From: Takakia lepidozioides
Taxonomy: Eukaryota > Plantae > Bryophyta
Length of the DNA stretch: 64,000 nt
Direction: 5' to 3'
Assembly: GCA_030704615.1 (NCBI GenBank)
Contig: CM060732.1
Span: forward strand, 25,296,001 to 25,360,000
Shown here: positions 12,053 to 58,699 of the stretch, piece by piece
Position numbering within the stretch: position 1 is the stretch's first letter
How the letters are laid out: every line of letters starts with the position of its first letter
Notes under the pieces: model-generated
What the model was told of the DNA's origin: nothing
The model's database searches: none
What the model saw: only the letters and a program-made list of their open reading frames with translations
Program-made: the position numbers and the translations under genes

Positions 12053-13160
12053 CTACATCTGCAGGATGCAGAAGATTACAGAAGCATAAGGACATAATTG
12101 TAAGCATGGTAGAGGTTGTGATGTATTGGTGCACCTGGTGAGAGACTCCATGGAGGAAGCCATCATTAACAAAGCTTGTGTCATGTTCCCTAAGTTTTGT
12201 GTTTTCTGGACTTCCAGCTCGTACAGACGTTCCTCCATGTTTGATGTCGCATTGTCCTTCAATCAGAGTCTGGCCTCACGCTCCTGGTCCAGAGTAAGGA
12301 TGTTATTCCTCCACGCTTTCTTGTCAGCCTCTTGCATCTCAGCCCTGGATAGATACTCATTGTTGAAGTCTTTTTCAAAGTCACACAGGTTATCGGTACC
12401 TGATTGTTTGCGTTTTCGTCCAGTTGAGCCAGAAGTATTGTCTCCTGGAGTGACAACAGGCGGAGGTGTTCCTACAGTCTGAGAGGAACGTGTGTCAGTG
12501 CCTGCACCTGCTGAAGTGTCTAGAGGGGAAGCCCTGCCAGCAGACGCATTGGGAGAAGGTGCACTTGAGTGTATCGGTGCTCCAGCTGCAGCTCTCCCAT
12601 AGCGCATAGGTATAGCACCAGGCCGTTTGTCGGTGTCTATGACATTCATCGTTGTGCTAAAGATGGTTCTTTGCCCATACCAGGGCTCCATGGTCAAGTA
12701 CATTGCATGAGTGAACTCTAGTGGCAACTTCCGCTGCTTGGAACTCCTTCTTTTCAATTTTGGATAACCCCCACCAATCTGTAGCTCCTGATGAGTTAAA
12801 GTAGTCTTTGAGCTTTTTGAATTCTTTAATCAGCATGTCCCATTTGTTTGTGATCTGGTCGATGTCACGGCCTCTGAAGTCTGTGTGCGCCATATAGCCA
12901 GCAAGAATGGCCCTCCACGCATCCTTCCCGTAGACAAATTTCTCCGTGGTATGAGTTAGAGGGTGGTGGCGACCTTCATACTCAATCCTCTTCTGCTCAA
13001 TGAGGATAAATGCCTCCTGTTCTGTCCAATTGGGTCCCCTCACTTTCACTTGCGGTGCACCTGTTGCAGATTGCTTCCCTGATTTCGAACCTCGACCCCC
13101 TTTCTTAGCAGGCACAACACTTGTCAGAGGTCGTGCTTGTGTGCCACGATCTCCATCCAT
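12053..13160 (-). pseudogene. Harbinger Myb/SANT (trihelix) DNA-binding protein, frameshifted
   Basis: RGPNWTEQEAFILIEQK...W..I...RDIDQITNKWDMLIKEFKKLKDY..WW trihelix motif; continues in ORFs 12263..12757 and 12053..12262. Confidence 0.85.
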
Positions 13161-16100
13161 AGACTGATGAGACTCCTCTACGTATCAACTGGGTTAAAGC
13201 TGTCATCACCCAAGTTGACATCATCTTGCAGCTCCATGTTTTCGGTAACAACACTCAAGAATTGTCTAATCCCGTTATCTGGTTGCCTGGAAAAGAACGA
13301 GAATATGGTGGGAAACGTGTTAGGGTTCTCCTGGTCCTCACCTTAAGCAGCCATACTACATGGTCAGTAGAGAGGCTGCCTTTAAAGCTAGAAGCCTCCA
13401 GGTTGCTCTGCTGATTTGGAAGACAAGTAGGCAGAAGCTAAAGGAGCAGCCACCTCACTGCTGAGCTATGGCTGCACGCAAGGTACTGACACTTTACTTT
13501 GAAGTGCTGCTCAGTATGGCAACCTAGGGTTGAATGCTTGCTGAGCTTCTATGTAAAGGCTAACCTCCCAACCAGCTAGGGTGGAGCACCCCTTCTTATC
13601 TATCTCAATGGCCTGGGATCCAATAGCCATAATTGCCATTGCCAACAAACAAAGACAAGCTTGGATAATCGCTTTGTCAAGCGCAAAAAATGAAATTTCC
13701 CCTATAAACGTGCCATATCCAATGAGGGCCTAAGAGTCAAAGGAGGGACGTCCACCAACCTGGCAGCCATAGTGCCCAATTAGTCTTTGGAAGTGCTTGC
13801 CTTGTCAGATGAAGCTGGTCCCTTCCCCTGGTAACGCTGCATCCCCACAACCCACTCTCCTGAGTATGAATAAGCAAGATCAAGACTGCAAATATTTTGA
13901 AGTCAGTTGTGAACATTTTACCATGTTTGCCAAGAAGGATTTATTACTTTCACAGAGGCCTAGACTGCTCACGGGTCACTAAACAATGAGAGACATGATC
14001 AGCACAAACCTGCAAGCCAATAATACTATCTTCAACCACCAATGACCGTTCTGGTGCCACTCCCAGTGCCTGCAATCAGACATTCTTAACACTCAGAAAA
14101 TTATGGATCCCCAACCTTACATATATTCATTTTGTGCCTAGTTGAATAAACACAGGGTGCTCCTTGTTGTAAAAGGATACATAAAGACAAGAGTATGTCA
14201 CTTTTATCTATCTTATCTATTAGGTGAGCAGTGTCCCAACAGGGCAATAAAGAAAATGTGATCCCAGATTTCAACTTTGTGGGTAAAAATATCAGTTTAG
14301 AAACATACTATGGCAGTTGCTATGTAAATGGATGGATCGGGCTTCTTCTTGTCCACGTCAACACCTGCCAGCTGTTAGTAAGACATGAAATAGGGTATGG
14401 GATTGTCATGGGTATGGAAGTAGTTGGTCCGAAAACTGAAGATGAGAGAGAGTCCAGTCTTTTAAATAGATGCATAGGGTTAAGTGCCCAGTTTTAACAG
14501 CCTAAAGCCCTGGCCTTGTTGAGATCTAATTATTGGGCAGCTCACACAAAGCAGATTGATGCTTGTGCGAAGGGCTTTCTATAGGAAATGTGGAAAGCCA
14601 AAATCAATTGTCTATACCAACGTAAGTCCCCCCTACTGCAGGGAACCCCTCACAAAGATGGTGTCTGTTCCCTCTTGTTCACCCAAACTGGGGCGGGTCT
14701 ATGGCCAAAGGCTACCGCAAACAACCTCTCATGAGGGCACTCCCTCCCTCTCTCTGATGTGCTAGCTCTGTCAGTGAAACAATGGAATTGTCCTCACATG
14801 AAGGTTCACTAGGAGGTTATACATGAGGACTGTACATGTCAAACATGGTATTCACTGGATTGGTGAGAGGTCTATTAACTGGGAGGTGTGGAGGAGATTA
14901 GGTGCTGCTGAGGCATGTTTAAGATTACCTCCAACTCCAGTTAGGTGTACAACCTCCAACTCTAGTTTTTCATTCACAATCAAATTCAACATTAGATAAA
15001 TGTGACTCTTTCCAGAAAATCAATGTGCCGAGGGTACTTTACCAACCAGACATATCTCTAATGGTCGTATTTGGGATGATGGTTTTACAGGTTTACTTCC
15101 AGTCATTCACTTCTTCTGACTGGAAGTACCCCACATCAGTTCCTACACCAGAAAGTTCAACTACTCCAGAGGTCTCCGGTGTAGTACAACCTTAGATGAG
15201 CCCTCTCGTAGCCTCTGTCTCCAAGCAGCATTTGAAGTCTTTGATGTGGTTTTCTTGTTGTCCATTTTTATTCCATAGGCCCCACATGAACATTACAAAG
15301 AGTTGTTTCGTCTATGTTATAAGCACACACACAACCTACTCACTTTGAATACTATGTGCAATCATCACAATGAATGCATGTAAGAGAATCTGATAGATGG
15401 AGAAAGACTCGAAAACTTGAAGGTTGAGGTGTTGGAAATACCGTGCCAAACAGATTAGTGAGACAGAATGCTACTGAGCTCTTTGTGGCAGCCGAACACA
15501 CTGCCAGCTTGAGTCCCTGCATTGCACGCTCACCAAACTCGTTGTCATCAGATTCTAACTGATCAGAGCAATCCAGCACTATGAAAAAAACACGAATGTG
15601 ATTGCCAGCGAGTAGATAAAGCCCTACAGGCACACGTTGGTAAATGTTTCGAGCTCACCACCGTTCTCCACCACCGTGTCTCCAGATGCTGGAGAAACAT
15701 TCTGAACAAGAGTTCATGGGGAACAAGGGAACAAACGAATGTCAAGCGAATGTCGGGAATTGAAAACGCCGATATCCGTCGAAGGTTCTCCCAAACGAAC
15801 CTCTAAACGTACAGTAGTTAACCCCCCCCCCCCCTACCCCCCATTACCCCCTATAGCCTCCGGTTAAGCATGCCGGACAGGCCCCCGACAGGGTTCGTAC
15901 CAACTCCGCTATGTGCGGCTCTAGTTAAAGAAACTCTGGCGGGTAGCACCCCATATTTGCTCCTTAACCCGGTAGGTGCGGCCTGGCCATTAGGCAGTTG
16001 TTCGTGTGCAGTTGTGAGGTCTTCACAGGCCTCATCACCCTAGCTCACTGTCCCGTCATAGGCTCAAATACCCCAGCCTGGCACACAATACTGCTGAGCC

Positions 16101-24871: not shown

Positions 24872-25868
24872 TCAAAATGTGGGCTTCTCGAGAGCGCGAA
24901 GACAACAAGCCAATGAGCTGATTGTCAAGTTAGGATCACTTGGCCAGAACTCGTTCGTGAACTGAGCATAAGCACCGTCACCATGGCCATGAGTCACCAT
25001 ACATGTTAGGGATATAAGTAGCTGACCAAGACCAGATGTCATCTTGTTTGTTACGAGGAGCCGGGGCAACGCAGTCTTCGAATGATCCATCTTATTGTGT
25101 ATAATACACATAAACTCCTCACCCATCATCGTTGATTCATTTCGCCAACTATGATAAAGCTTGCGACATGACTCTTGATGCTTCAAATGTCTCTCAAATT
25201 TCCTTTTGTTCTTTCTCTGCACCTCAGTTCCGCTGACTGACTTCTGGATAAGATCTTTAAACATCTCACAATCTGTGCATTTCGCGAATTTTCCACCAGG
25301 TTTTCGAACCTCAACATTCCCAAAAAGTTTTGTTCGAATTCGGCTAATTCCAGACTTCAGCAATGCCTTCAAGCCCATTCGTTTGTTCGCTTGATCCAAT
25401 AGTCAACAATATATAGAGTTGGTATCATATTTAGGACGGGAGACCTCCCGTGGACATTGAAATTGAGATCGAATTTCCAATATCTAAATCCAAGAGCTAT
25501 GAAAATTTGATATATGCATAAAGAACGAGAGACACAAAATTTCGTTCTTAAAATATAGATGGACAGATTCGCTCGGAACGATCCATCAATGGACTATCGG
25601 TTAATATTCTGACGATTTGATATCGACTATTAGTACACGTAGCAGAATGATTACGGGAGGTCTCCCGTGACATACGCTCCTTGAAAGTAGAAAAAATATT
25701 TATAGAGGCAGATCCGGATTAGGTTGGAAAGCAGTATTCTACCTCATTCGACTGTCGGTTTAGCTCCTTCCAATTCATCTCCACCGGCAGCAACTTCAAA
25801 ACATCTTGCCTTCCTTCTCCGATACCCCTCATTTTATGAGGCATGAGGTCACTGTTTCTGGAAATCAG
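24872..25868 (-). pseudogene. Transposase-like gene, 3' part (Sola-like/DUF7869-like, tentative), with intron ~25391-25742
   Basis: FAKCTDC...HLKHQESCRKLY...IIHNKMDHSKTALP...HGHGDG...WPSDPNLTI; joins in frame (LLSL|ISRNSDLMPH) with the 36532+ part once the LTR element is removed. Confidence 0.6.
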
Positions 25869-26195
25869 TGTCAAGTTATTTTACCACTAGTGTGAAACTA
25901 GCTAGGAAATAGCTAGCTTTTACATATTGACATTTGGGATTGGCCCAAGTGTCAATCCAGGGGTCAAGGCAGATTTAGGCCCTGGAGTGGTTATCTTCAC
26001 GGCAAGCGCGGGAGGCTCATCTTTCTCGAGTTGAGCCTCACCGCGCCTAGCTATGGCGCCGTAGTGTGGATTCCCCATGGCGTGGGGTGCACTTGGCTTG
26101 ACTTGTATTTGAGTGATGAGGTTATACATGCATGAGTTTATGCTTCAGCTTTGTGAGCTCGCATGAGCTTGTGCTTGTATTCTTCCTCTTTATCA
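25869..26195 (+). repeat. Repeat A1 (327 bp, 5' partial LTR)
   Basis: Matches A2 (36016-36342) with 2 C/T differences seen; ends TATCA. Confidence 0.95.
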
Positions 26196-26211
26196 CTCGA
26201 GAAAGATGAGC
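26195..26211 (+). promoter_or_regulatory. Putative self-priming PBS
   Basis: ACTCGAGAAAGATGAGC is the exact reverse complement of 26015-26031 inside A1; no tRNA-type TGG PBS follows A1. Confidence 0.65.
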
Positions 26212-27424
26212 TCGTATCTATGAGTGCTAGATACGAGTTAGTTGTAGCACTTGTGGTTTTTGCTTGAGAATGAGAGAAACCAAGTTGTTATGCAAGGAGC
26301 ACCGTGGAGCTCTTGGTTGTTAGAAGCGGAGGCGATGTGGGTTACGAGGTGGTAAACCTTGGCATTCGATCTTCAGCTTCAGAGATGAAAGCACCATACT
26401 GTAGGTATTCCAGAAGCACCTTGATGGTTTCAGATTGTGTACATGCATGAGCAAGCACGATTGGGGAGAGGACCAGTCAAGAGCAGGTTATAGTGGCTTT
26501 GGTGGCCAAAGCTGAGAACTGGACTTGGGAATGCGAGCTGTCATTGTGTGAAGGATTGCAAGACCAAGCGAAAGGCCTGATTTGGCTTGGGGCAAATCAG
26601 TGCACTTTGTTGAGTATGGTGAGATTGGGTTTCAATCTCGAGCTTCAGCATTGAGAGGGCTCTTGTCATGGCGAGAGCAGCGGCTGGAACAGGAGCTAAG
26701 AGGTGCGGCAAGGCCATGGAATGTGCACCTAGGGGTACAGAGCTGGAAGAAGAGCTCTTGCACCACAAGAGAAGTGTCTTGTGGCTGGAAATGTAAGCCT
26801 TAGGGTTTCAGGAGCTTGGCAAAGGCTATGGAGTGCTTAGTCTTGTCTAGAGAGCATAAAGGAGCCAAGGAGCAAGATAGGGGCTGATATCTCTTGTTGT
26901 GAAGAGGTTGCATGTGTGGAGCATGTATTCAGCTCATTGAAATTTTAGGCTGGTTTCCACTTGGAGTGAAAGAAAAGCACTTGTAGGGCCTATGTGAGTT
27001 GGGGTTTCAACTTCAAGCTTGAAGGGAGCGCAACTCTTGAAGCAGCAGGTGTAGGGGGCTGGAATAGGCTCTAAGACAGATGCTATGGCAAGGAGAGTGC
27101 TTGAATGAGTGCTCACAAGGGCTGGGAACCAGCAGGGCTTGGTTGTTTGCCATTGAGTTTAGTGGCGTTTGGGAGGCTAAGTGAGAAAGAAGGCTTGGTT
27201 TGTGGCAACCACCTCATGGCTTAGGGCTACTATGGTGGTGTGTGGGAGCCGAAAGAGCAAGGATACCTTGCTGATTTCCTCACAGCCACCATAGCTCGGT
27301 GGAAAGAAGCCTAGAGTCCAAGAGACACCCTAGCTTGGCGTGGCTAAACCCCTTGGAGAAATGGCTAAACTGCCATGCGGCAAGTTTGTAAAAAGACAAA
27401 CAACCCCACATTTTGTTGTGAATG

Positions 27425-28030
27425 AGGCTGTGAATAAACGGGCAAGCCGGCTGTGACAAAAAGGCTGTGACTGTGAAACAAGGCTGTGAGGCTGTGACAG
27501 GCTGTGGAAACACAGGCTGTGAGGGGCTGTGACAACAAGGCGGCTGTGACCCAAAGACAGGCTGTGAGGCTGTGACCCCCTGTGAAGGCTGTGAGGGCTG
27601 TGAGGCAAAGGCGGGCCAAAATGTGGGCTGTGATGGGGCTGTGACAGGCTGTGTGAAGTTGTGAGGGCGGCTGTGAGGGGCTGTGACATGAGGCCTGTGA
27701 AAGGCTGTGACGGGCTGTGTCCGGGCTGTTGTGAGGGCTGTGATGAATCCTGTGGGCCGGTGGGGCTGTGTGATGTTGTGAATGTGAGGGGCTGTGACAA
27801 ATGTGACGGGCTGTGAGGGGCTGTGAGGGGCTTGAGGCGGCGGCTGTTGAGATTGTGATTTGAGGGGCTGTGACCTGTTGGGCCGGGCTGTGTGAGAATT
27901 GACCTTGATCCTGTGCCTGAGACGGGCTGTGAGATGATGTGACGAGCTGTGAGGGGCTGTGACAGGCTGTGCCCAGTGGCCTGTGGGACTGTGACGGCTG
28001 TGACCAGTGAGCTGTGTGGGCCTGTGCTGG
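27425..28030 (+). repeat. Degenerate (GGCTGTGA)n array in the 5' leader of the retroelement
   Basis: Dozens of GGCTGTGA/GGCTGTG units with short spacers. Confidence 0.9.
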
Positions 28031-28291
28031 TCTGTGGTGGCCCGTGTTGACCTGTGGATGGCCTGTGCTGACTCGTGGAGGCACTGGTGGACTAAGGACT
28101 GGCATGTGGTCTGGAAGGCCGAATTTTGAAGCTCGTGGAGGGGTTTGAGGAGTATCTTCATGATATTCCCATGGTCATGCAAGTTCAGGTGTAGGCTATG
28201 TTAGGAACTTAGTATTCCAAACCATAAGCCGCAACAGGTTCTCTACCCGGTTACCTTGTGGAGAGGGGGTTAGGGACATGTTCATGACCGG

Positions 28292-30083
28292 TTGAGTGTC
28301 AACACGGAGGTGCCACTAGTTGCTGGGGACAGTGCCGGTTCGAGCACTAGCGATACTAGTGGGTACACGAGACGAGGTGTGCGGTTTAGGCCACCTTCAC
28401 CTCCTGTGTCTTCCACGGAAGGTTCTGATTCGGATTGTGAATCAGGAGGACTCATACCGGCGGTGCAAGTTGTTTCTTTGCCATTGTTGTGGGACACAAT
28501 GGAGGAGATGTATGGAGCTACCAAGGGGCCACGAAGGTACTCTGGGGCGGTGGGCCATCGAGTTGGATGATTTTATCCAAGAGTTTGATAGTTGTGTGAT
28601 TTGCAGCAAATGCGCAATCCACAACTATTTACGCCGTTCATGGCATGGAAAGGGCTGTTTCAGCACCTTGAGGGGCCTATGGATGATTACCATGAGTTCA
28701 GGCGGGGGCATGAGGTTGAGATCGAGGAGTGGAGGATGTACTGGTCACCCGACTATGTCTCCATCACTAGGGGCACTAGAGCCACGAGGGCAGTGGCTAC
28801 CTGCCGCTGCACCGGCAGCTTCAGCAAGCAGCAGTGGGACTGGTGGTACAGTAGCTACGACGTCCACCCAAGCCACTACCGCACCAGCACTAGCACCCGT
28901 GCCTGCCTTCAACCCTGTTGTGGAGTTCTTCGAAGAGTTGAGAGGGAACTACCAAGGGGTGAGGACAGAGAAGTTGCGGAGCTTGCAAGAGTTCCAACGG
29001 AAGCCGACCGAGAGCTTGAGGGAGGCTTTCACTCGCATGAGGCGCTTGATAAATGTAACCCAAGGGGTTACGGAAGCTCAGGCAGTCCAATTCTGGTATG
29101 GGATATTGGACAAGGAGCTGAGGAGAAGGGTGCGGGATGCAACTCTCCTACAAGCGGCCCAACCCACCTTAGCAAATGTGTTTTTGCTGGCAGAGCGGAT
29201 AGAGCTCAACATGGTGGAGGAACGAGTGGTCATGGTGGGATTTGCTAAGGAGACACCACGGGGTAGTGGTGCTCCTAGCCAACCACTACCTCAACGTGCT
29301 CAAGGCAACAAGGGGGCTCAGGTGAAGCTCAGGGAAGGGCAGAGAGGACCTCAGATGCAGGGGTCTCTCCCTTCATTTGCTGGCCAACAACGGGCGGATG
29401 TGGTGTGCTGGACATGTGGAGGACCCCATGTCAAGAAGGATTGCCCAGAGGGAGGCAAAGGGTCGGCACATGCACAGCCTGCACAGTTGCAGTGTGGGCA
29501 TTGTGGCAAGCACGGGCATGGAGAGGCCCAGTGTTATGGTTTGCATCCTGAGTTGCGCCCAGGCCAGTTCCAAGGGAACAATGGTGGCCGGGGGCGAGGT
29601 GGAGCAGCCCAGAGAGGACGAGGTGGCCAGCCACGAGGTGCAGGCCAAGGGCAAGCTCAACGTGGCCAAGGACGCGGAGGTCAGGGTGTTGACCAAGGCA
29701 TGGCCAACCGGCTTCAGCAGCTAGAGCAGAGGCTCGCTGCCATGGCTACAGCTCAGGTGGTACCGGCTCTAAGGCCGGATGGTCCACCTCCTGCTCCTGA
29801 GGGAGGAGATATGGGAGGCATGGGATTCATGTGTGGAGCAGCACTACCACTAGTGCAGGTGGAGTCTGCTGCAGCCGTGACTCGAGGAGCAGCACGAGTT
29901 CCTGAGCCACGAGGTGCAGAGGTGGAGTTGGATCCACAGCGTGGGGAGGCAAGCCGTCAGGCTAGGCTTCCTCAGTCATTCACATTGGCGGAGACAGTGT
30001 CGACGCCATCCATGGCACCTAGTTCTCGCCCGACTGTTACCGAGGCGGAGGTACTATGCCATTGGGGAGAGCTACACGGGTAG
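28292..30083 (+). CDS. Gag (frameshifted) with two zinc knuckles and an RGG-rich tail
   Basis: ELDDFIQEFD, FQRKPTESLREAFTRM, CWTCGGPHVKKDC, CGHCGKHGHGEAQC, GRGRGG. Confidence 0.85.
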
Positions 30084-30173
30084 CACCACTACCTAGTGTT
30101 GCCAAGGCTACGGCAGCTAGTGTGCTGCTAGGAGCGGCCACATCTGTGTGCCAGGCTCCATTGTTCGGCTACC

Positions 30174-30850
30174 ATGATTGCGACGCCGGGGGTAAGACCA
30201 GCTGAGGTGTTCAGGCTGGCAGCTACACTCTGTGAGAGTGGGGAGGTTACTTCATCTTCTGCGGAGATAGTGGGAGGTGTAGTGCCGGAGGGATCCTCGG
30301 ATTTGAGGGTCAAGACTGCCACGGCGGCGCCATGGCAAGCTGCAGCTGCCAGGTTGATGGAGCTGCCAGCTAGGCCAGCCATTGAGCGCGCCATGGTGAC
30401 ACCTGGAGTTGTCATGTTAGACAACCAGGATGGCATTTTCTGTTTGAGTGGACCGGCAGGCAAGAGGTACCGGCCACTGCGGGTCTTGTTGGACTCGGGA
30501 GCTCAGCCACTGATGCTGGGCAGAGCTGCTATTGCAGGCTTGGGCCTCACGGAGGCGGATATGGAGCCTTGTCCTTTCCAGATACAGACGTCTCTGGGAG
30601 GATCGGAGCAGGCTCGGGGCATGACACGGTGAGTTGGCTATCAGACTACGGCCGGATCACCCTACAGATGGCTCAGTGATGCGAGCCAAGGCCATTGTGA
30701 CAGACGCAGTCTCATACGATGTCCTGGTTGGTGGGGCAGTGTTGTACCCCATGGGCTTCACCCTGGATTTTTGGGAGGAGTCAGCTTCCTATAGGCCTGC
30801 ATGGCAGTCAGGGGAGGGCCGGCGTGTGCAGCTCCCTGTGACGTTCATAG
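30174..30850 (+). CDS. Retroviral-like aspartic protease region
   Basis: VLLDSGAQ catalytic motif, later YDVLVG. Confidence 0.8.
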
Positions 30851-31127
30851 GAGGAGTTGCGGTTGCCCAGCGAGGCAAGATGCCGACACTAGCAGCATTC
30901 ACAGCGGCAGTGAGTTGGCCTAGAGAGTTGCTTGAGGGCAATGCTCATTCAGAGGATGTACCACCTCCGGGAGAGCAGGATGACATGTATGGTATGGCGG
31001 AGTTGCCTACCATGGTTGCTCAGACTCCATTGTGGGGCACGAGCAAGGATTTGCAGCGGGATGCTGATCGACGGGTGCAACAAGCCTGGGTGGAGGCTTT
31101 TGTACCGTCAGGAGAGGAGGAGAGAGT

Positions 31128-32150
31128 GTGGGGATTGCACCAGGACCACCTCAATTGTCTCCATTGGACACCACACCTATTGTGTGGCAGTCTCCGGATG
31201 AAGGCATTTGTCTTCTGGACTTGTTTGGCGGGATCAGCACCGGATTGGCTGCTGTGTTACAGGCAGGTGTACGAGTTCGGCGTTACCTGTATGTGGAGAG
31301 GGATGAGACTGCACGACGCGTTTCACTTCGCCATGTTGCTCAGTTGGTGCAGCGGTACCCTGAGTTGTTGTCGGTGTCTGCAATTCGTGGATATCAGCAG
31401 GCCTTGCCAGCAGACATTTCGTTGCTGGGGGCGCAGGATTTGGAGCGGGTTGGCTCCATTGATCTGGTAGTGGCAGGTTGGCCTGCCAAGGGCATTCATC
31501 AGCCGGGCATGGCAATGGATTGCGAGACTCGAGGTCGGGTCTGTTTTGGGAGATGGTGCGGGTTTTGCGCCACTTGCAGCTTCATCAAGCTGTATCTCCA
31601 GCATACATCTTGGAGAATGTGCCACTGATGGGCGATTCTCGGGCCAGGGTGATGGCCAGTGTGCATCAAGTCCGGTCGTGGCTTGGGTCAGCAGTGTTGC
31701 TAGAGATGCAGCTACAGTGGGGTCACGGGCTCATCGTCCACGGCTATGGTGGACTAACATGATGCCACCCGCACTGCTCAAGCGTGCATTTGATGGGGTG
31801 CAGCGGCCAGCACATCTCACAGTGGATAACATTCTGGACACAGGGAGGCAGTCTCAACGTGTGAGACACGATGACCGTTCGCCTTTGGCAGTGGTCAACA
31901 AGGTGGGTCAACCACGAGCAGCATTACCTACACTGCTCAGCTTCCCAGGATCGCATGCTTTCCGGGATAGTGGACCTGGCCTCCTGTGGGATGCTCAGTT
32001 GCAGCAGTTAGTGGAGCCTAATGCTGACGAGCGTGAGCGGGCAATGGGTTTTACGGGGGGCGGTGTCGTCTCTTTCTGAGGCATCACGTCGTCAAGTGTT
32101 GGGGCAAGCAATGGATCTCAATTGCTTGACCTGGATTATCAGCTTGGCTC
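31128..32150 (+). CDS. C5 cytosine DNA methyltransferase domain (DNMT3-like) inside Pol, frameshifted
   Basis: Motif I LLDLFGGI; II YVERD; IV DLVVAGWP|CQGHS; GLRDSRSGLFWE; VI ILENV; VIII AHRPRLWWTN; IX ERERAMGF; X RRQVLGQAM. Confidence 0.9.
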
Positions 32151-32604
32151 TAGCTGAGCAACGCAGAGTGCGGAATACACTTCCCTCAATGGTCTCTCTG
32201 CCTACCGAGACGGTACAGGCAGTGAGTGGGGGCGAGCATATGAGGACCACGGGGTGCATGCATCCATGGCACACGTGGGAGGTGCTCGAGGTTCAGAGGG
32301 AGTTGGCAGCCAAGGCGGCTGTGATGGATGAGGTTGGGGATTCTTCTCGGGTTGAGGAGGTCCTCAAGGATGAGATGATGGGGCAGGATGAGGCCTTGTC
32401 ATTGACTGAGCAGGTAGGGAGTACTGCTCAAGAGGTTGCAGCATAGCAACCACGGGACGCGTCCTCTACCTCTAAGCCCACTGGACTTAAGGTTGTAGTT
32501 ACGGAGGACAATTGGGAGCCTGACATTGGACCCATTGTCACGGAGGAGAGAGACGACGTATACGGCGGTTCCTGAGGGCTTACAGGAATTGCTTTGCCTT
32601 CAGT

Positions 32605-35420
32605 TTGAAGGACTTGGGAGCACTGAAGGGTCAAGAGATCCGTATTGAGTTGGCCACTGACACGCCAATCTTTCGGAGACCCTATAGATACAGTGACATG
32701 GAGAGGTCTTTGATTCAGATGAGGACTCAAGATCTCTGGGAGGCAGGTTTGGTGGAGCTCTCTGGTGGAGAGTATGCTTCAGCCACAGTGATGCCAGCCA
32801 AGAAGGATGTATGGCAATTGGACGGAGAGACGTATGTGCGGTGATTACCGGCCTGTAAATCGTCAGACCAAGTCCGATAAGTATGCCATGCCAACACCAG
32901 AGGAGATCTTTGATGCCATCGGGCATGCTAAGGCCTTTAGCACTTTGGATTTACGATCCGGATCACCAGTTGCCAATCAAGGAGGCGGACAAGCAGAAGA
33001 CGGCATTCTGGGGGATCAATGAGCACGGCAAGGATTGCCTATATCAGTGGCGGTTCTTACCATTTGGGCTTAAGAATGCTCCTGCAGAGTTTCAGAGAGT
33101 CATGGATAGGATTCTAGCAGGGGTGGACTTTGCTCGGTGCTACATAGATGACATCATCATCTTTAGTGTTACGATGGAGGAGCATGAGAGACACCTTCAG
33201 GTGGTATTGGAGCGCTTGAGAGCGCACGGATTGAAGTTGCATCCGGGGAAGTGCAAGTTTTTCCACAACCAGATTGAGTATCTGGGTCACATGATATATC
33301 CTGGAGGATTGGGGGTACAGCAGACTAAGGTAGAGGCCATTGCACAAATTCCACGCCCCACGGATGTGAGCCGAGTTCGAGCTTTCATGGGGTTGGCAAA
33401 CTATTATAGACGGTTTGTCAAGGGATTTAGTACCATTGCAAAGGCTCTAACCAAGCTGACCAAGGTGGACCAGGAGTGGCAGTGGGAAGATGAGCAGGAA
33501 CGAGCTTTTCAAGAGCTCAAGGCGAGGTTGACCTCGGCGCCTATCTTGAGACGACCTATCAGGGGGCGTCCCTTTCAGCTGCATACGGATTGGAGCATGC
33601 TGGGGCTTGGAGCGGTGCTCACACAGGTGGATGATGAGGGAAGAGAGTTCGTAGTGGCTTACGCTAGCCGCTCGAACAACGCTGCAGAGGCTAAGTACAG
33701 CTCATATGAGGGAGAGTGCTTAGCTGCAGTGTGGGCCGTGGCACACTTCAGGTGCTATCTATACGGCAATCTTTTCACCCTTGTCACGGATCACCAGCCA
33801 CTCAAGTGGTTGATGGAGTCAGACAAGCTTACGGGGAAGCTTGCACGGTGGGCACTTATACTCCAGGAGTATGACTTTCAGGTTGTGCATCGACCGGGTT
33901 TGGTCAATCGGGATGCGGATGGATTGAGTCGCAATCCATGCATGAGCCAGCAGGATGACACTGGAGCTCGGTGGCATGGTGAGACGGACGAGGAGATGGT
34001 GCCGGGATGGCACGCATCTGCATTTTTGTGTATCTTGGCATCGGGAGGTCAGATTGGACCTACAACAGGGATGACTGTAGACGGAGTGTCTGAGGACCCT
34101 GAGGCTAGTGATGAGCTAGGTGGTGCCAGAGATATACATGAGGATTCGGCTGTGTTGGACTACCTCCGCACGGGAGACACGGCAGCCATTGTGACTGCCA
34201 GGGAGAGGGATCGGATCCTGCAACGAGCCAAGAGGTTCAAGTGGGAGGGGATACACCTACTTCGAGTGTGGGAGGATGGTCGGGTGAGGATTGTGCCTCA
34301 CCCCACACAGCGTGCACGGTTAGTGCGGCATGCCCATGAGGAGTTGGGGCATTTTGGAGTGCGACGCACTCACAGTTTACTGCAGGGGCAGTATTGGTGG
34401 CGTGGTATGCATACAGAGGTGCAACAGTTTGTGGCTAGGTGCATGGTGTGTGACAGGGTGCGTGCTTCATTCAACGCCCCTACACCACAGTTGCATCCTT
34501 TACCAATCATGGGATTGGGCTACAGGTGGAGTCTTGACTTCGCAGGACCGTTGCCACTGACTATGCGCCACCACAGATATGTGTTGGTGATGGTGGAGCA
34601 CTTCTCCAAGTGGATTGAGTTGGTTCCATTGCCTGACAAGGCTAGTGAGGGGGCTGCGTATGCATTCTTGGATCGTGTGCTTAGCCGATTTGGTGCTCCA
34701 GCTGAGGTACTCACGGACCAAGGGAGAGAGTTCTTGGGGGAGTTTCAGGCTTTGTGTGATAAAGCCTTGATAGACCACCGCACCACTTCTCGGGATCATC
34801 CTGAGGCCGATGGCTTAGCAGAGAGAGTTGTTCAGACGGTGAAGAGGGGTTTGCGCAAGTATGGCTTGCAGAAGGGACACCTAGGAGATTGGGATCTTCA
34901 GGTTCCTTGGTTAGCCATGGGCTACAGGTTCAGCAAACAAGCATCACTTGCCTCCTTCTCACCATATTTCCTTCTCTTTGGCCGAGAGCCGGATTTGCCT
35001 GCAGCCATTCGTAGGGACACTGCTCAAGTCCTTAACCTTGACGATCCGGACGTGGGTACGTGCATGTGATCAGCGTGCAGAGTTGTTCAAGAAAGTCATG
35101 CCCATGGCTTTTGAGAACCTTGCCATTGCACAGCACCGTGATACGTTGAGGTATGCCACTATACGTGGTGGAGGATATCGTCCTGGGGTTCGGAGGTTTA
35201 GCCCTGGTGACTATTTATTTGCAGCAGACTGCTCCTACGACTCTGGATGTTACTGCAGGGCGTGTTATTCTGAGGGTTCGAGAGGTGTTGCCCTCAGGGG
35301 TCCTGATCTTAGAGGGTCGGGATGGCATGACTTGGAAAGACCATGTGCGTAATTGTGCGCCATGTCACCTTCCCAATGTCGATGGCAGAGTTGACCCAAA
35401 CTTGGCAGTGGTACCTGCAG
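32605..35420 (+). CDS. Reverse transcriptase, RNase H and integrase (Ty3/Gypsy Pol)
   Basis: RMCGDYRPVN, LPFGLKNAP, YIDD, HTDWS..LGAVLTQ, YEGECLA, TDHQPL, HEELGHFG..CMVC, SLDFAG, TDQGREF, GLAER. Confidence 0.95.
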
Positions 35421-35428
35421 GTTTGAGG

Positions 35429-35562
35429 TGCATGCTCTGTGGGTCTGCCAAAGGGGCAGCCACCATGCTGGTGTGATCGATGCTCAAGGGGTTGGCATAT
35501 GGGGATGCTTGACACCACCTCTTGAGAAGGTTCCTGACGGAGATTGGTTGTGTCCACACTGC
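35429..35562 (+). CDS. PHD finger at the integrase C-terminus
   Basis: With two small indels corrected: CMLC..MLV(C)DRCSRGWHMGCLTPPLEKVPDGDWLCPHC = C4HC3. Confidence 0.85.
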
Positions 35563-35829
35563 TTGGGATAGTGGCAGTGGACATGACTGGAGGCAGCTAA
35601 CAAGACATGGGAGGCCAAGCTCATAGGAGTCAATACATGATCCCAAGCTCAAGTTCACAGGTTGCAAGACGGCGACTAACGATGGGGCAACTCTTGCACC
35701 CGGCCTCTTGATCTATCGAGTTTGAGTGTAGTAGGGATAGTGGTGGAGGACTTAGTGAGGCTATGGTCACTATCACATCTTGTGGCTACCTGGACTTAGA
35801 GGGACCTAAGCACCAGCTAGGGGGGCGAT

Positions 35830-36531
35830 TGTGTGGACTAGTGACTGCCATAGTGGGCAGCATAGTGGCAGCCTAGTGACTGACTAGTTGTAGCCTAGTG
35901 GTTGGACTAGTGGCTGGACTAGTACTAGTGGTATACTAGTGTGTGGTGTGCACATGTGTTGTGTGGTTTTGGACAGCGTATGTAGTTGTGTAGCGATATG
36001 TATGCGCACGACAGCTGTCAAGTTATTTTACCACTAGTGTGAAACTAGCTAGGAAATAGCTAGCTTTTACATATTGACATTTGGGATTGGCCCAAGTGTC
36101 AATCCAGGGGTCAAGGCAGATTTAGGCCCTGGAGTGGTTATCTTCACGGCAAGCGCGGGAGGCTCATCTTTCTCGAGTTGAGCCTCACCGCGCCTAGCTA
36201 TGGCGCCGTAGTGTGGATTCCCCATGGCGTGGGGTGCACTTGGCTTGACTTGTATTTGAGTGATGAGGTTATATATGCATGAGTTTATGCTTCAGCTTTG
36301 TGAGCTCGCATGAGCTTGTGCTTGTATTCTTCTTCTTTATCATTGTGTGGACTAGTGACTGCCATAGTGGGCAGCATAGTGGCAGCCTAGTGACTGACTA
36401 GTTGTAGCCTAGTGGTTGGACTAGTGGCTGGACTAGTGGTAGACTAGTGGTATACTAGTCTGTGGTGTGCACATGTGTTGTGTGGTTTTGGACAGCGATG
36501 TAGTTGTGTAGCGATATGTATGCGCACGACA
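35830..36531 (+). repeat. 3' repeat block: B1 (35830-36013) + GC + A2 (36016-36342) + T + B2 (36344-36531), preceded by PPT AGGGGGGCGA
   Basis: Direct comparison of copies; B1-GC-A2 forms a TG...CA LTR right after the PPT. Confidence 0.93.
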
Positions 36532-37256
36532 TCAGCGATAACAAATTTGTCTCGGCCTGCATGGTTTTTGCTCATGGTTTCTTAATTCCTCTGTTTCCAT
36601 GCATTGACGAGATGTATCCATCATTTCTCTTCCTCTTGTATCCATGGTACATTGACCTTCCGATTCCATGGATTGACCAACACGCCTTCTCACAGACCTC
36701 AACTTCCATTGTAAGGTAGGCATGACGACCACAACCTGAAAGTCGGTGTAGTCGTCGGGGGATGTCAAACCCTAACTCTCTCTTTGCATCAAAAGAAGAT
36801 GCATAGAACTTACTCCGGATAGCCTTAGTTTTTTCCCAGCTAAAGTGTTGACAACAGTTTCGAGCACAACAGCTCACAGAGCTTACTACTTGAATTGACT
36901 CCGAATTTAAGAGTCGGATCAATTTCTTCCCCTAGTGTTCCCATCTCCATTTCAAACTCGTTTCAAACATTTATACTGCGATTTCTTAACTCCTTCGAGG
37001 TGGTCATCCTCCGTGTCTGACTCGTGCTCGTCATAAAACTTTGTGAGCAACTTTGATAGTTTGCGGCCGTCTCAAAGTTTTGCAAGATGACGCTCACTAA
37101 ACTACTAGAGAGACGCCTGCCATGACAAAATCCCTCTCTAGATGTATTCAGACATGTACCCTCAGCGACAATTCTGGGAACTGGAGAGCCGACAAGTTGG
37201 ATTAAATTCACGGTTTCTCCGACAAACAACTGTCCACAGGTGCTAACCATCTTCAA
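36532..37256 (-). pseudogene. Transposase-like gene, 5' part (continues at 25868 after the LTR insertion)
   Basis: CCARNCC...VCEKACWSIHGI...HGNRG...TMQAETNLLSL; upstream VAEG..CHGRRL segment resembles Tnp1/EnSpm-type domains. Confidence 0.6.
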
Positions 37257-38766
37257 ACGCGGGAAATGCTATGCCCTCGAGTAAAAAACGGGAAGCAAAA
37301 AAGGTAGAAAAGATGAATATATCAAATGCGGCAACACTCCGCAGGATGACGGGAGATCCCCCCTTATAGTCGCCTCAACACTTAAGTTAGAATCCACACA
37401 AAAATTCTGGATTGTGCAAGATAGAATCTATGCACACCACAAATGCAAATAACACTAAGGGATCACGGGAGGTCTCCCGTTCTGTGATCTCCAATGGGTG
37501 GAAAAAGATAAACAGAAAATAGAGTTCCAGACAACTTGGAAAGGAACTGCTCAAGATGAAGGGAGATCTCCCGTCACATTCCTTTGAATGGTATAACTAG
37601 AGAAGACGAAGACAGATAAATGAGATTAAAAGAAGAGCGACAAAACAAAGAGAAAGTCTAATGGAACAGCACCTCTTCGTTGTGCCAGGCTAAAAAAATA
37701 GACACTGCGTGAGATCAGTGTGTAACTCTTCTGGAAAATACTGATAGAGAATGACTAACAAACATGCAGAGATGAAACACCACTCTCCGTCCTTCCACCA
37801 CCCTTCCACCACTCCTCAGTCAATTCCACCACCTGCACTCCCCAATTCGGCAGGGCTTCGCCGAGACGGAATGAAATGAGATGGAAGATGTTGCCCTTAT
37901 ATAGACCCGCATTTGCATGCTGGGGCATGAGGCCAACCGCACCCATACATGAGGCTTGTACAACAAGGGGAATCGTTTCATTAATTACTTGGCATAATGA
38001 CTGTGACGGGGGGCCTCCCGTACCCGATAGTACGACATCTGCATGGGCGCCACGTGGATGGATATCATCTATGATGTACCTGCACGATGACATCAATGTA
38101 ATCGGTACCGTCTGTCATGGACATAGCCCAGAGGAACTTACCAGGAGTAAATACCAGAAGTTACCAAGTTACCATGTTACCGAAAGTTATCATGACTTAC
38201 CATGATTTATCATGATCTACCATGATTTACCATTACTTACCAAGTTATCGGAAGTTTACCAAATTACTAAGAGTAACTTGGGAAACTGCTCAGGAAGCTT
38301 CCTTTGGATGAAACTTCTCCATCAAGATACCTCCTTTGTTTAATGAAGCTTCTCCATCAATAAACCTCCATAGGGGAAGCTTATTAGGGAAACTTCTTAG
38401 TAGCCAGTATATATAGGAGGCGAGACTGGACACTCTTTAGTCTCGCCAACACCAGTTCAAGCTACTCTTGTTTCCAGTTCCTAGTACTCCAGTCTAGTTC
38501 CCAGAACCCTAGCCCAGTTTCTAGTATCTGGTAATCCAGTCCAGTTTCCAACATTCCAGTATTCAAGTCGCGTTCCAATATATTGTACCCTTGTTCATTG
38601 TTATAAAGATCGCCTTGATTCCTATTTACTCGTCGTGCATACGGCCACGCCGACCTTGACTTCTTGTCTAGTCTTGTACCTCTAGTCTGATCTCTTGTTT
38701 GTGTTCAGTCATGTTCTCATCTTTGACAGTTTAGCGAGACTAAAGTTTGTTCCTTAGTTAGTTAAG

Positions 38767-40879: not shown

Positions 40880-41535
40880 GACGTCACAACGATGATGTTA
40901 GCCAAGTTAGCTTCAAGGTGAAGACTCCACATTCAGTATATCTGATACACACTAAGGAGGGAGGTTCTCCAACTCTAAGCAAGTCCAAAATTTCACCGCT
41001 CCTCGAGGAACTCGACGCTAGAGGAGGGGCTGATGTCACGGACATAGCCCAGAGAAACTTACCAGGAGTAAATCCAGAAGTTATCAAGTTACCATGTTAC
41101 CAAAAGTTATCGTGATCTACCATTTTTTTTTACCATAAGTTATCATTAGTTACAAAGTTACCGGGAGTTTACCAAATTACCGAGAGTAACTTGGGAAACT
41201 GCTAAGGAAGCTTCATTTGGAGGAAACTTCTCCATCAAGATACCTCATTTGTTTAAGGAAACTTCTCCATCAAGAAACCTCATTGGGGGAAGCCTCTTAG
41301 GGAACCTCCTAGTAGCCAGTATATATAGGAGGCGAGACTGGACACTCTTCAATCTCGCCAACGCAAGTTCAAGCTACTCTTGTTCCCAAACCCAGTACTC
41401 TAGTCCAGTTTCCAGTATCTAGTACCCTAATCCAGTTTCCAGCATTCCAGTATTCGAATCGAGTTCCAGTATCTTGTACTCTTGTCCATTGTTATAAAAA
41501 TCATCTTGATTCATGTTTACCCACCATGTTTGAAA

Positions 41536-42273
41536 ATGAATCTCGAATCAGGCACTGCACACGCTAAGGGTCGGTCAGGATGTCAGCCAAAGCGTTGGCC
41601 AAGATACCATTACCTAGAAGATGAGGAGCTGATGTCCGCTATCCAGAAATTAGTGGAGGAGAACGACAAGGAATCCGATCTAAGCCATTGCAGTGGAAGC
41701 AAAGTAAATGTTGTCGCCCCAGAGAACATACCAGCACATTCACCAGAATACACCCCTGCAGAGGACACGTATTCACCGACAGATTCACCAGCTTACACCC
41801 CTGCAGAGAACTCGTACATACCAGCAGATTCACAAGAATACACCCCTTTAGAGGACACGTATGTCCCAGCAGATTCACCAGTATACATCCCTTCAGAGGA
41901 CATTTACATACCAGCAGCTGTCCACCCAGTGTACATACCAGTAGATTCACCAGAATACACCCATTTAGATGACTTGTATGTACCTTCAGAATCACTAGTA
42001 TACACCCCTGCAGAGGACACTTACATACCAGCAGTTGTCCACCCAGTGTACATACTAGCAAATTCACCAGAATACACTCCAGGACTGTACACTCCACAAG
42101 AGCACGCCCTGGATGCACCTGTGTATCCTCCCGGATCAAATTCCCAGGGTGCACAAGCGTCGAACTCAATCGAAACCGACGAAATCTCCAAAATATTCCC
42201 TGATTGGGTTTCGGACATCGACTCTTGGAGTCCTGGATACTCTCCAGCGACACCTCAAAGGGATCCAAAGTAG
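41536..42273 (+). CDS. Hypothetical Y/S/P/T-rich tandem-repeat ORF (~39-bp units, SPEYTPAEDTYIP-like)
   Basis: Open frame through the repeats; unit CCAGCAGATTCACCAGAATACACCCCT... repeated at ~41720-42090. Confidence 0.4.
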   Translation: MNLESGTAHAKGRSGCQPKRWPRYHYLEDEELMSAIQKLVEENDKESDLSHCSGSKVNVVAPENIPAHSPEYTPAEDTYSPTDSPAYTPAENSYIPADSQEYTPLEDTYVPADSPVYIPSEDIYIPAAVHPVYIPVDSPEYTHLDDLYVPSESLVYTPAEDTYIPAVVHPVYILANSPEYTPGLYTPQEHALDAPVYPPGSNSQGAQASNSIETDEISKIFPDWVSDIDSWSPGYSPATPQRDPK

Positions 42274-48643: not shown

Positions 48644-48888
48644 AACCCTGACACTTTAAGGCAATCACAAATTAATTTTTTCTCATGGACTTTCAGTGGA
48701 GGGCATATCTGCCGCTTTTGAGCCACTGTAGTCTGCACTTACCCTACAACATTTTGACTTATATCCCTAAGCACAAACTCGGTTTTGTTTAAGTCGCCAT
48801 AAATTCTAGATTCATCTTCTACTTTACTACACATCAGTAATATAGCTGCCGATGGTCACATCCAAAGCTAACCGTTGAATCTTGACAG

Positions 48889-49764
48889 ATGGGTCATGAC
48901 CATTTTCGAGCGAGCGTGGCAGCAAATCTCTTGCGCCGGAAGACACGAGTGACGGCCTCCTCTGGAGGTCAAAGAAAGTTAATTATTCTGAGTGTTGTTG
49001 GTTTATTGTGCTATAAACCCAAGCCTGTTGGATCACAGAGGTTCCTTGAACAAATTTTCCCTCGTGCCAAAATTCCCTACGATTGGGACAATGTCGTTTC
49101 TCGTCCAGGTCTTCTTGAATTTCTTGAACTTGCGTTCAACCATTACCATGTGGGTATATGGTCCTGTGGAGTTCAGCATATGGTTGAGCTTCTTGCATAT
49201 CTTCTCCCGAAGGATATGGTCAGGAAATTTTGCTTTATCTGGTGTCGGGATACTTGCACCAAGCTTCCTACCTACATTGCCTCAACACAGCCGTTCTACA
49301 TTAAAGACATTGTTGGTCTTTGGGAACACTTCGGGAGAAGTTCTAAGCCCTACGGCCAAAAAGGCCAAACACTTTTGATTGATGATGAGCCCACCAAAGC
49401 CCTGAGGAACCCTTTAAACACTGGTTTTTACCCGAGATCCTTTGATGACACTCTAACGCCGATCGTCAAGGAGGGACGAGATTCTTTTGTTGAGGATCTT
49501 GTTAAGGCTTTATGGCCATTCCTTTCTGGCATGATGTCATCTCCGACAGTTCAAGAGTACATGGAGGAGAATTACTGGAAGTGTGCAAATGTTCAGATAC
49601 CTGTCGATAGCTCTCACCCTGATTGGATTTGGCTAGCGAGATATGTAAATCCCCTAGGGATTACTAACCCTTGTGTGTTTTTAGGTATGTTCCCACCTCT
49701 TTGCTTTCAACTTCTTCTTTTTATGTCAACCGATGTGTCTTGGAGTAGTAGGTTAAGAGGTTAG
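48889..49764 (+). CDS. FCP1/NIF-like HAD phosphatase domain with a degenerate catalytic motif
   Basis: RKLIILSVVGLL, RPGLLEFL, VGIWS, FIW, IKDI..LW, TLLIDDEPTKALRNP. Confidence 0.75.
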   Translation: MGHDHFRASVAANLLRRKTRVTASSGGQRKLIILSVVGLLCYKPKPVGSQRFLEQIFPRAKIPYDWDNVVSRPGLLEFLELAFNHYHVGIWSCGVQHMVELLAYLLPKDMVRKFCFIWCRDTCTKLPTYIASTQPFYIKDIVGLWEHFGRSSKPYGQKGQTLLIDDEPTKALRNPLNTGFYPRSFDDTLTPIVKEGRDSFVEDLVKALWPFLSGMMSSPTVQEYMEENYWKCANVQIPVDSSHPDWIWLARYVNPLGITNPCVFLGMFPPLCFQLLLFMSTDVSWSSRLRG

Positions 49765-55997: not shown

Positions 55998-58538
55998 TTA
56001 TACAGACAACGCCTGTCTTTGTTTCATCTCTTTAAAAACGCGAGATGCATCATTGAGTCTGTTGGCTCCCTCATACACGCGGACCATTGTCAGATACAAT
56101 GCCTTCTCACCAACCCCGCCTTCCTCTTTTAGCTTAGCAAATATGGCCTCTGCTGCTTTTATTTCACCTGCATGCCCATGCATTTCCATCATCTTCCAGT
56201 GAACATCCTCCCCAAAAACTAACCCTTCTTCCCGGATATTTTGATAAAATCTCTCTGCCTCTCGCACCTGCTGCAGTTTGCCATAGGCCCCCAACACCAT
56301 GAGACAAGTGTCAGAGTCTGGTAACAGGTTCCCTCCCCTCATTGCTTCAAACACGTTGATAGCAGGAGTTGCTTTATTTGCCCGTACACAAAGCTGAATG
56401 ACGTTTTTGTAGACTAATGGATCCTTAATTTCCCCAGCCTTTTGAGCTCGCCAAAATTGTTTAGCAGCTTCCTCCAGCTTCCCAGCCATGGCTAACACAT
56501 TGATGGCTGTATCGCGGGAGACATCTTCTGACTGCTTTATTTCTTCGAGAAGACGCTTTGCAAGCCCAATCAACCCTGCCTTTTCATACACCACCACCAT
56601 GGACTGATAGAGTATTTCGTCCATAGGAAAACCCTGCACCCGCAAGCTTTGAAAGAGGAGCGCAGCTTTGTCATACTTTCCATTTTTTCCATAGGTTGAA
56701 ATGAGGGCACTATAAGTCATTGCATTCGGTTCAATTCCATTCTTTTCCATTTGTTGCACCATATTCGACACTCTTTGTAGATCATGCGAATCTCCATGGA
56801 GCTTGATCAAGGTGTTGTAAGTGATGACGTTGGGCATGATACCCCTGCTATGCATGAAATGGAATATACGAACTGCCTCGGAAATCAACCCTGCCTCCCC
56901 ATATACATTGATCATAGTATTGAAAGTTACCACATCAGGGGATACCCCCAAGTCCTTCATGCTCCTAAAAAGATTTTCGGCCTCCATTACCAAGTCCAGT
57001 TTCCCATAGACATCGATCATCATGTTGCAAGTAGTGAGGTCTAAGGCGCACCCCTTGGCCTGCATCTCAAAGAAAACTTCCTTGGCCTCCCCGCATTTCT
57101 CATTTTCAGAGTACACATTTATCAGAGTACTGTAGCTTACAGTGTCGGGTTCAATTTCCAACTCTTTCATGTCAGCTAAAAGGCTTTCCGCCTCTTTGTA
57201 CAATTGTGCCTTTCCAAATATGTTGATCATGGAGTTGAACACCACGCGGTCAGGCTGGATACCAGAGGCCTTCATTCTAGTGAATAAAGACACTGCCTTG
57301 GAGAAATTTTTCACCTTCCCAGACAGCTCAATGAGAGTGCTGTATGTCACCAGATCAGGTAATATTCCCTTTTCTTCCATCTTCCGAAACCCAATCAAAG
57401 CGGAATCAAACTTTCCTGCTTTCCCAAATGCGCTGATGAGCGACGAGTAGGTGAATTTGTCAGGAGAGACTCCCTTCTCTATCATCTCCCCCACTAAACC
57501 CCCTCCTCCAGTGTCCACCTCCTTGCCCTCAATGCATTCCTGATCACAATGTTGTAGCCAAACGTTGATGGCCGGTAGCCTCCCTCCTCAAGCATCCAAT
57601 CATGCAGCGCAAGCGCTCGTTGCCAGTCCCTTTCCTGGTTTAACAAAGACATCATAAGCCTAAGCGATAGTTTTCCTTTCCACTCTGCCATTACCTGGAC
57701 CATTTCTTGCGCACTCACTGTCACTTGCAAATCTTTCAGGATTGCGTCTAAGTCAATGAGGTAATCGGGCCTAGTGAAGGTACCTTCGCCTTGATGTGAC
57801 AACACCAGATTTCCTCTAGCAATCGCGCCCCTCTTGACATGTGAATTCGAACTGGAAGCTGCATTCATGCGAGTGGAGGATGCTGCTGAGTGAAGAGTTT
57901 GCGAGCTCCGAGAGGCCGTGATAGAGGGCTCAGCTGCAGCTGCAGGAGAGTCAGATGAAAGAAAGTCTTCATAAAAAAGATCATCATTATCAGCAGGCAA
58001 TTTATTATCTGCATGGACAGTACAGGCATCCGGTAACTTCAGCCTCTGTCTATAAATAAGCAGGTTTACTTCATTCACAGCTTCTATGTCAAAGGAGGAG
58101 CTCTGATCAAACGACGCCACTTCATCCTTAACGGAAACTCTAGACGAGACTTTATCGTGTTCTAGACAGCACTCTTCTCTCACAATTGCCTGTGCAATGG
58201 CCGCGAGCTTGAGCGACGGAGAAAGGCTAAAACTAACACCTCTAACTCTACGTGGAGCCACAGGCACGAACACATGATGCAACCTACAAAACAATTCCCT
58301 CATCCCCGCATCCAATCCTCTACACTCACCACTGTAACTACAAGGCAGGCACACGCGCTGCCGCATTGCACACGATTCCATCATTTCTACTTGCACATAC
58401 GAGCGTGGCGCCACAGGCAGGAACGCTCCCTGCGACCTACAATCCAATTTCCTCATCCCCCCCCTCCAAACCTCTGCTATCTCCGTTGCAAATACATGGC
58501 GGCCACAGGGGCTGCCGCAGAGCACATGACACCACCAT
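55998..58538 (-). CDS. P-class pentatricopeptide repeat protein, At5g39980-like (probably plastid-targeted); two frameshifts in G runs
   Basis: Tandem 35-aa repeats (PDKFTYSSLISAFGK, PDLVTYSTLIEL, LDLTTCNMMIDVYG...RLNDASRV); frame breaks at ~57500 and ~58460. Confidence 0.9.
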
Positions 58539-58699
58539 TTCCCGATCTGCGCAAGGTCGAAGAGATCCCCGACAAGAGAAAAAGGGGAGGAAGGGCTTCC
58601 CGCCGCTGTCGAGAGGAAGCAGACGAGGGTCCAAGGGGGTTTCGTCCGCCACGTCGGGGATTACTTCGTCGACTTCAGCACGAGACTTTGCTAAATCCT

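Follow-up and report, generated by a model that had tools for sequence, protein, structure and literature searches.

The 64-kb window of Takakia lepidozioides DNA analysed here contains a young insertion from a high-copy Ty3/Gypsy family, and this element carries a C5 cytosine methyltransferase domain which sequence comparison and structure prediction confirm as DNMT3-like, unpermuted and not DRM. The DNMT domain is the end of ORF1 (Gag-PR-DNMT), and a conserved stop sets it apart from RT-RH-IN-PHD. Elements of this kind are known from algae; what appears to be new here is the land-plant host, the conserved stop and the self-priming site. The element is 10,663 bp long, lies at 25869-36531 on the forward strand and has the layout A1-internal-B1-GC-A2-B2. 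Its termini are TGTC on the left and GACA on the right, flanked by a TCAG duplication. Its features are as follows.

25865-25868, + strand: left copy (TCAG) of the 4-bp target-site duplication; empty-site contigs join the flanks, omitting the element and one copy
25869-26195, + strand: repeat A1; the element begins with TGTC and the repeat terminates in CA
26015-26030, + strand: predicted self-primer, a 16-nt exact complement of the sequence directly 3' of A1
26196-26211, + strand: primer-binding site, predicted to be self-priming (Tf1 type); the geometry recurs with other sequence in moss loci
26212-28319, + strand: 5' leader, without a recombinase-sized ORF; a degenerate tandem array rich in GCTGTGA lies at about 27440-28050
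28349-30380, + strand: gag, with CCHC knuckles and a Gly/Arg-rich linker, frameshifted as assembled; alignment to P0326
30381-30849, + strand: aspartyl protease, with DSG at 30492; PF13650 E 0.007, below cut-off
31194-32164, + strand: DNMT3-like C5 cytosine methyltransferase domain, with three frameshifts as assembled
32444-32452, + strand: conserved in-frame TAG then CAACCA, fitting CAR-YYA (PMC2754532); predicted leaky (readthrough) stop of ORF1
32453-35400, + strand: Ty3/Gypsy-type RT, RNase H, H2C2 and DDE integrase core; Ty3 Gag-Pol is the best-matching PDB entry (E 4.5e-78)
35410-35571, + strand: C-terminal PHD finger, then the stop; one piece matches PF00628 at E 0.0013, under the cut-off; alignment to P0062
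35819-35825, + strand: polypurine tract AGGGGGG, directly before B1
35828-36013, + strand: repeat B1, terminating in CGCACGACA
36010-36019, no strand: internal palindromic junction GACA-GC-TGTC, equal to both element ends joined and identical in L019 and L037
36016-36342, + strand: repeat A2, second copy of A
36342-36531, + strand: repeat B2; the element terminates in GACA
36532-36535, + strand: right copy (TCAG) of the target-site duplication, matching the left copy

The order PR-RT-RH-IN, a Ty3-type RT, a DDE integrase, TG..CA ends and a 4-bp duplication are those of Ty3/Gypsy elements, except that two complete terminal LTRs are lacking and the repeats run A..B-A-B. A1 and A2 are thus split direct repeats and not LTRs. 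In Pfam searches a gag piece matched PF03732 below the cut-off (E 0.004), and no tyrosine recombinase was matched among the large window ORFs, nor was one seen by eye among the leader ORFs. With a DDE integrase and a 4-bp duplication present and no tyrosine recombinase found, an identity as a DIRS, PAT or Ngaro element was ruled out.

All C5-methyltransferase motifs sought in the six-frame translation lie in canonical order between protease and RT, as had been claimed: I (DLFGG) at 31218, followed by II (VERD), IV (GWP then CQ) at 31476-31489 spanning a frameshift, VI (ENV) at 31613, VIII (RAHRPRLWWTN) at 31726, IX (ERERAMGF) at 32029 and X (RRQVLGQAMD) at 32087. A whole-ORF Pfam search did not detect the domain, because of the frameshifts. 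Searched in pieces, the segment 31484-31714 (motifs IV-VI) matches PF00145 with E 7e-8 and 32.7 bits against a cut-off of 22, while the other three pieces searched alone gave no PF00145 match. A frameshift-aware alignment to the intact relative P0002 covers 31194-32164 at 74.5% identity with no stop and places the three frameshifts at about 31483, 31707 and 32056; identity to Marchantia P0007 is 75.8%. P0002 itself aligns colinearly with DNMT3A (E 6e-12), whereas DRM matches only in permuted order and over the C-terminal part (E 1e-8 to 2e-4); the match to HhaI has E 4e-3. An AlphaFold model of P0002, built on a 51-sequence alignment, has a pLDDT of 92.6. Every Foldseek match listed for it is DNMT3A/B/C (E 7e-19), as are the top 34 VIA matches (Z up to 28.5, rmsd 2.5), with 4dkj at 24.9 and HhaI at 23.9; the ESM Atlas returned only a generic C5-methylase match. 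Motif order, colinearity with DNMT3A and predicted fold thus bear out the earlier assignment to DNMT3 over permuted DRM. Among 112 aligned family domains the E of ENV is conserved in 100% and the R/R/W/N of motif VIII in 96-100%, and C140 and E183 are invariant in the 51 sequences.

The domain had been described as lying inside Pol between protease and RT. Its position stands, but it does not share an ORF with RT, since a stop precedes the latter: the TAG at window 32444-32446 shares its frame with DNMT as well as RT, and CAACCA follows directly. Full-length ORF1 proteins (P0007, P0326, P0009 and, in the sister group, P0082-P0093) hold Gag-PR-DNMT in one frame and end past the linker. We searched for a stop motif before CAAC in 56 linker sequences, namely 55 loci, several of them duplicates of one another, and the window. 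TAG was found in 33, TAA in 15, another codon in three and no motif in five; two of the stop matches (L011, L021) look off-site, so that about 47 of the 56 carry a stop at this site or close to it. The residues flanking it are not the same in the window, in L069 and in the moss family, while GCN-TAR-CAACC is kept. No stop separates DNMT from RT in P0152, P0455 and Closterium P0457.

CAR-YYA after UAG is the readthrough signal of TMV, according to the accessible text of PMC2754532, and the UAG-CAA-CC stop is likely to be read through by ribosomes, judging from its sequence. Against readthrough, most moss copies read CAACCC, short of the full CAR-YYA, and no stable RNA structure follows the stop in the window copy (z -0.45); the z values of -0.45, -2.74 and -1.35 lend no support to a conserved RNA structure at this point. 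Instead of being read through, the TAG might serve as a 3' splice site or for re-initiation, and splicing could then yield Pol with or without DNMT. Splicing is known from Ogre elements. The moss copies have a T-run before the TAG and an ATG six bases after it, as such a reading would ask, but the window and L069 have neither and yet keep GCA-TAG-CAA-CCA, and one contig of X12, a run taken by guess to be RNA, crosses the site ungapped; we regard this alternative as decidedly unlikely.

The 16 bases directly 3' of A1 are the exact complement of 26015-26030 within A, for which the chance expectation is about 8e-8. In 16 of 24 left ends of moss loci, a different 11-mer forms the pairing, at A position 165-169 with at most two mismatches, about 30 bases past a TATA-like motif. 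Pairing is thus 16 nt long in the window element and 11 nt in the moss loci; the Tf1 primer is 11 nt. Tf1, Sushi and Tcn1 likewise have a primer-binding site complementary to sequence inside the terminal repeat, but, as far as the accessible text of PMC6317226 goes, they combine it with ordinary LTRs and a chromodomain, whereas in the window element the repeats are split and a PHD finger and a DNMT are present. A 10-bp perfect hairpin at window 26205-26241 overlaps the end of the primer-binding site.

Given the self-priming site after A1 and the polypurine tract before B1, we infer that the repeat made by RT would be B+A and that the inserted form would be a circular permutation of it. Together, the split repeats, the GACA/TGTC ends, the 4-bp duplication, the self-priming site and the polypurine tract point to integration of a circle. 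The whole A..B-A-B arrangement recurs in four moss loci (L024, L065, L070 and L072), and four moss loci hold both ends in A-internal-B form. Both ends are present in ten moss loci: the 4-bp duplication is perfect in six of them and matches at three of four positions in another three, while one has a damaged left end. L024 has filler DNA at one A2/B2 junction, as end-joining would leave. What speaks against the circle model with simple random opening is that the mirror arrangement A-B-A-internal-B should then occur as well, yet none of the 24 left ends is preceded by B. No CG preference was seen in the target duplications, and the NCGN target preference of Phygy elements, given in the accessible text of PMC6317226, was not seen for this family. 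Two moss stretches (L045:13282-13570 and L046:5531-5819) consist of a partial A, a remnant of the primer-binding site and B, resembling a circle junction that retains primer sequence. Window 36506-36531 and the moss B ends share a CpG-containing end motif, whose variants in dead copies are CpG deaminations.

Recent activity, claimed from the start, is borne out. Contigs of runs X1, X3 and X5 contain the empty site, with the flanks joined and 10,667 bases skipped, that is, the element and one duplication copy; the flanks of the empty site differ by about 5% (three runs, two samples). A1 (25869-26195) and A2 (36016-36342) differ at two of 327 sites, which together with the empty site makes the insertion young. 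Contig depth over the element is hundreds to thousands of times that of the flanks in these three runs from two samples, depth not being equal to copy number, and in the same runs the DNMT bins have about 0.5-1 times the read depth of the RT bins.

Over its aligned coding parts the window copy has 17-19 frameshifts and no nonsense codon; two compensating frameshifts in the Gly-rich stretch may be alignment artefacts. Moss DNMT copies show the opposite balance, with 130 stops against 10 frameshifts in the first 40 of 56, and on this comparison ordinary decay was rejected as the cause of the window frameshifts. Sister contigs vary in length at the frameshift sites. The frameshifts are probably assembly indel errors, the moss comparison copies coming from another host.

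A search with the first third of the DNMT domain returned 80 proteins, and those labelled by species belong to Marchantia polymorpha, Calypogeia fissa and four Sphagnum species. Among these, the closest are 73-83% identical to the window DNMT, with synonymous sites saturated. A library of 50% clusters gave 269 proteins at E up to 1e-30, and among the best 150 of these we found two architectures: PR-DNMT-(RT), with K. nitens and Closterium among its members, and RT-RH-DNMT-IN-PHD, to which the chlorophytes Hariotina, Monoraphidium and Haematococcus belong. The latter group is large (P0095-P0135 and many of P0145-P0281) and finds no mention in the accessible text of PMC5890265. P0081-P0093, P0139 and P0140 form the sister group of the land-plant clade at about 50% identity, and most of them end soon after the DNMT. 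A scan of viral_contigs with P0092 gave no relative among 13 candidates.

In a tree of 112 of 168 DNMT domains, computed with the RH-DNMT-IN type halved and with no outgroup, the window DNMT falls in one clade with liverwort proteins (support 1.0), while the deep nodes, including the placement of Klebsormidium and Closterium, have weak support. The DNMT and RT trees agree across green plants on sequence comparison: distances computed from the DNMT and from RT-RH are correlated in the 77 elements that have the two domains (Mantel r 0.655, p 0.001), and the DNMT tree contains 18 of the 24 strong splits of the RT tree. The lineage may plausibly have come down vertically from an ancestor resembling Klebsormidium, with the weakness of the deep DNMT nodes in mind.

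Between the window, L069 and the moss copies, DNMT pN is 0.17-0.23 and pS 0.68-0.78, compared with a pN of 0.14-0.15 for RT and 0.22-0.25 for protease; DNMT dN between lineages is 0.20-0.28, and dS ranges from 1.8 to saturated. These values support purifying selection on the DNMT between lineages. Variation within the moss copies (56 after deduplication of 67) is near neutral, with pN/pS of 0.6-0.8 and only the shared non-deamination variants at 0.27-0.33. Sister copies of the window element carry, among the DNMT variants listed up to 32138, six nonsynonymous and four synonymous changes, too few for a selection test. The domain is therefore present in sister copies and constrained between lineages, contrary to what a single passive capture, raised at the outset, would predict.

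A DNMT-carrying Gypsy element of K. nitens, KnitGypsy-Dnmt3, has already been described by de Mendoza et al. 2018 (PMC5890265). In the accessible text of that paper it combines Gypsy domains, DIRS-type split repeats and an unpermuted Dnmt3-like domain under purifying selection, all as in the window element. K. nitens GAQ93235.1 (P0207), which we assume to be this element though it is not so labelled, likewise carries its DNMT after PR and shares 40% identity with the domain in the window, in line with the kinship to Klebsormidium proposed earlier. The window element differs in its land-plant host, its high copy number and its conserved stop, whereas DNMT and RT share an ORF in KnitGypsy-Dnmt3; a target-site duplication, self-priming and a PHD finger are not mentioned for the latter in the same text. 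SymbioDIRS-Dnmt3 shares the A-coding-B-A-B repeats and a Dnmt3-like domain in a retroelement but has a tyrosine recombinase and a DIRS RT, as opposed to the DDE integrase, Ty3 RT and 4-bp duplication found here (PMC5890265, accessible text). EpiLTRs are also LTR-type elements with a cytosine DNMT, but theirs is DNMT4-related, DAM-paired and accompanied by a chromodomain, and in the accessible text the authors call them distinct from the streptophyte Gypsy-DNMT3 (bioRxiv 10.64898/2026.05.21.726589). Later papers, in their accessible parts, mention Gypsy-DNMT3 only as 'streptophytes' (PMC12344493; bioRxiv 10.64898/2026.05.21.726589). The host MpDNMT3b (Mp5g09290; bioRxiv 10.1101/2021.02.12.428880, accessible text) has a DNMT3-type catalytic domain as well, but in contrast to host DNMT3 and DRM2 the window DNMT is intronless and part of a polyprotein, and the Marchantia family members (Mp4g09160, Mp8g17980 and Mp6g11220) are loci other than MpDNMT3b. 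A literature search, in which subscription papers, figures and supplements were thinly covered, found the family reported from neither land plants nor chlorophytes, and brought up no description of the stop or of self-priming.

Based on these observations, we propose a model for the life cycle of the element. ORF1 (Gag-PR-DNMT) would be made in bulk and RT-RH-IN-PHD through readthrough of UAG-CAA-CC; as DNMT and Gag both lie in ORF1, the DNMT would be as abundant as Gag. The protease would release the DNMT within the particle. RT would prime itself at the site after A1 and use the tract before B1, giving a cDNA with B+A at each end, whose ends would be joined to form a circle. Integrase would then open the circle at the internal GACA-GC-TGTC, which would produce the A-internal-B-A-B insertion and the 4-bp duplication. 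The DNMT would methylate this cDNA or circle de novo while it is still naked, and the new copy would land already marked like host repeats. Given the near-invariant catalytic residues, the predicted fold matching DNMT3A/B, the pN/pS values, the congruent trees, the conserved stop and the de novo CG methylation carried out by the related DNMT3 of a Symbiodinium DIRS element (PMC5890265, accessible text), the most likely role of a DNMT packaged at Gag level is in our view methylation of the element's own cDNA or circle, to which we give an even chance. Against this, the enzyme with demonstrated activity comes from another class of element, variation within the decayed moss copies is near neutral, and host methyltransferases would methylate the copies anyway. 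The full picture, in which an active land-plant lineage of circle-integrating, self-priming Gypsy elements packages a DNMT3 at capsid stoichiometry by readthrough, pre-methylates its cDNA circle and possibly chooses its att site, within a family that spans green plants and has had its DNMT shuffled between two polyprotein positions, is offered tentatively and is rather more doubtful.

The DNMT might act mainly in trans on chromatin, be it at the target site, on competing elements or on resident copies as self-restraint. Target-chromatin and rate-limiting roles are raised in the accessible text of de Mendoza et al. (PMC5890265), expression at the Gag level that we infer would exceed the need of one cDNA, and the integrase bears a PHD finger; on the other hand, the DNMT itself has no attached chromatin-targeting domain and the target duplications have no CG preference, and we think such a role unlikely. 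Methylation could also steer integration: with the CpG-rich end (CGCACGACA) marked, integrase would open one att site of the circle and spare the other. The B-end CpGs are common to the window and the moss family, with CG-to-TG/CA changes in dead copies, and of the two ways in which the circle could open just one is observed, but the conserved CpGs may be mere integrase contacts and the asymmetry may stem from A-A recombination or from collapse in short-read assembly, which leaves this reading very unlikely. That the domain is an inactive capture, passively carried, might be read from the frameshifts of the window copy as assembled; this is extremely improbable, as the domain is conserved in liverworts, peat moss, charophytes and chlorophytes although synonymous sites are saturated, its catalytic residues are invariant and the trees are congruent.

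Since 2018 it has been a question how a retrotransposon benefits from encoding the very enzyme that usually silences it, and the examples came from algae that are hard to manipulate. Marchantia polymorpha, a genetic model, has full-length Gag-PR-DNMT gene models with all motifs (e.g. Mp4g09160), which makes this question directly testable. Elements of this family may contribute to non-CG methylation in bryophytes and may inflate counts of host DNMTs, and their anatomy suggests an unusual Gypsy life cycle with a circle integrating at an internal att site.

Elsewhere in the window, a Myb/SANT-like fragment (12657-13184, - strand), a fragment with a weak 2Fe-2S match (24872-25402, - strand) and a NIF-phosphatase-like ORF (48886-49764, + strand) are each possibly part of another transposon. 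A direct repeat pair at 38113-38629 and 41034-41520, 82% identical and about 2.9 kb apart, is perhaps an old small LTR-type element, and proline-rich tandem repeats lie at 41712-42077. A host P-class PPR gene at 55998-58660 (- strand), orthologous to At5g39980, has Cryptomeria as its best named full-length match (51%); combined with the DNMT clade, this suggests a host among the non-seed land plants. The gene has a frame change at about 57500 in a G-run, which is likely an assembly indel.
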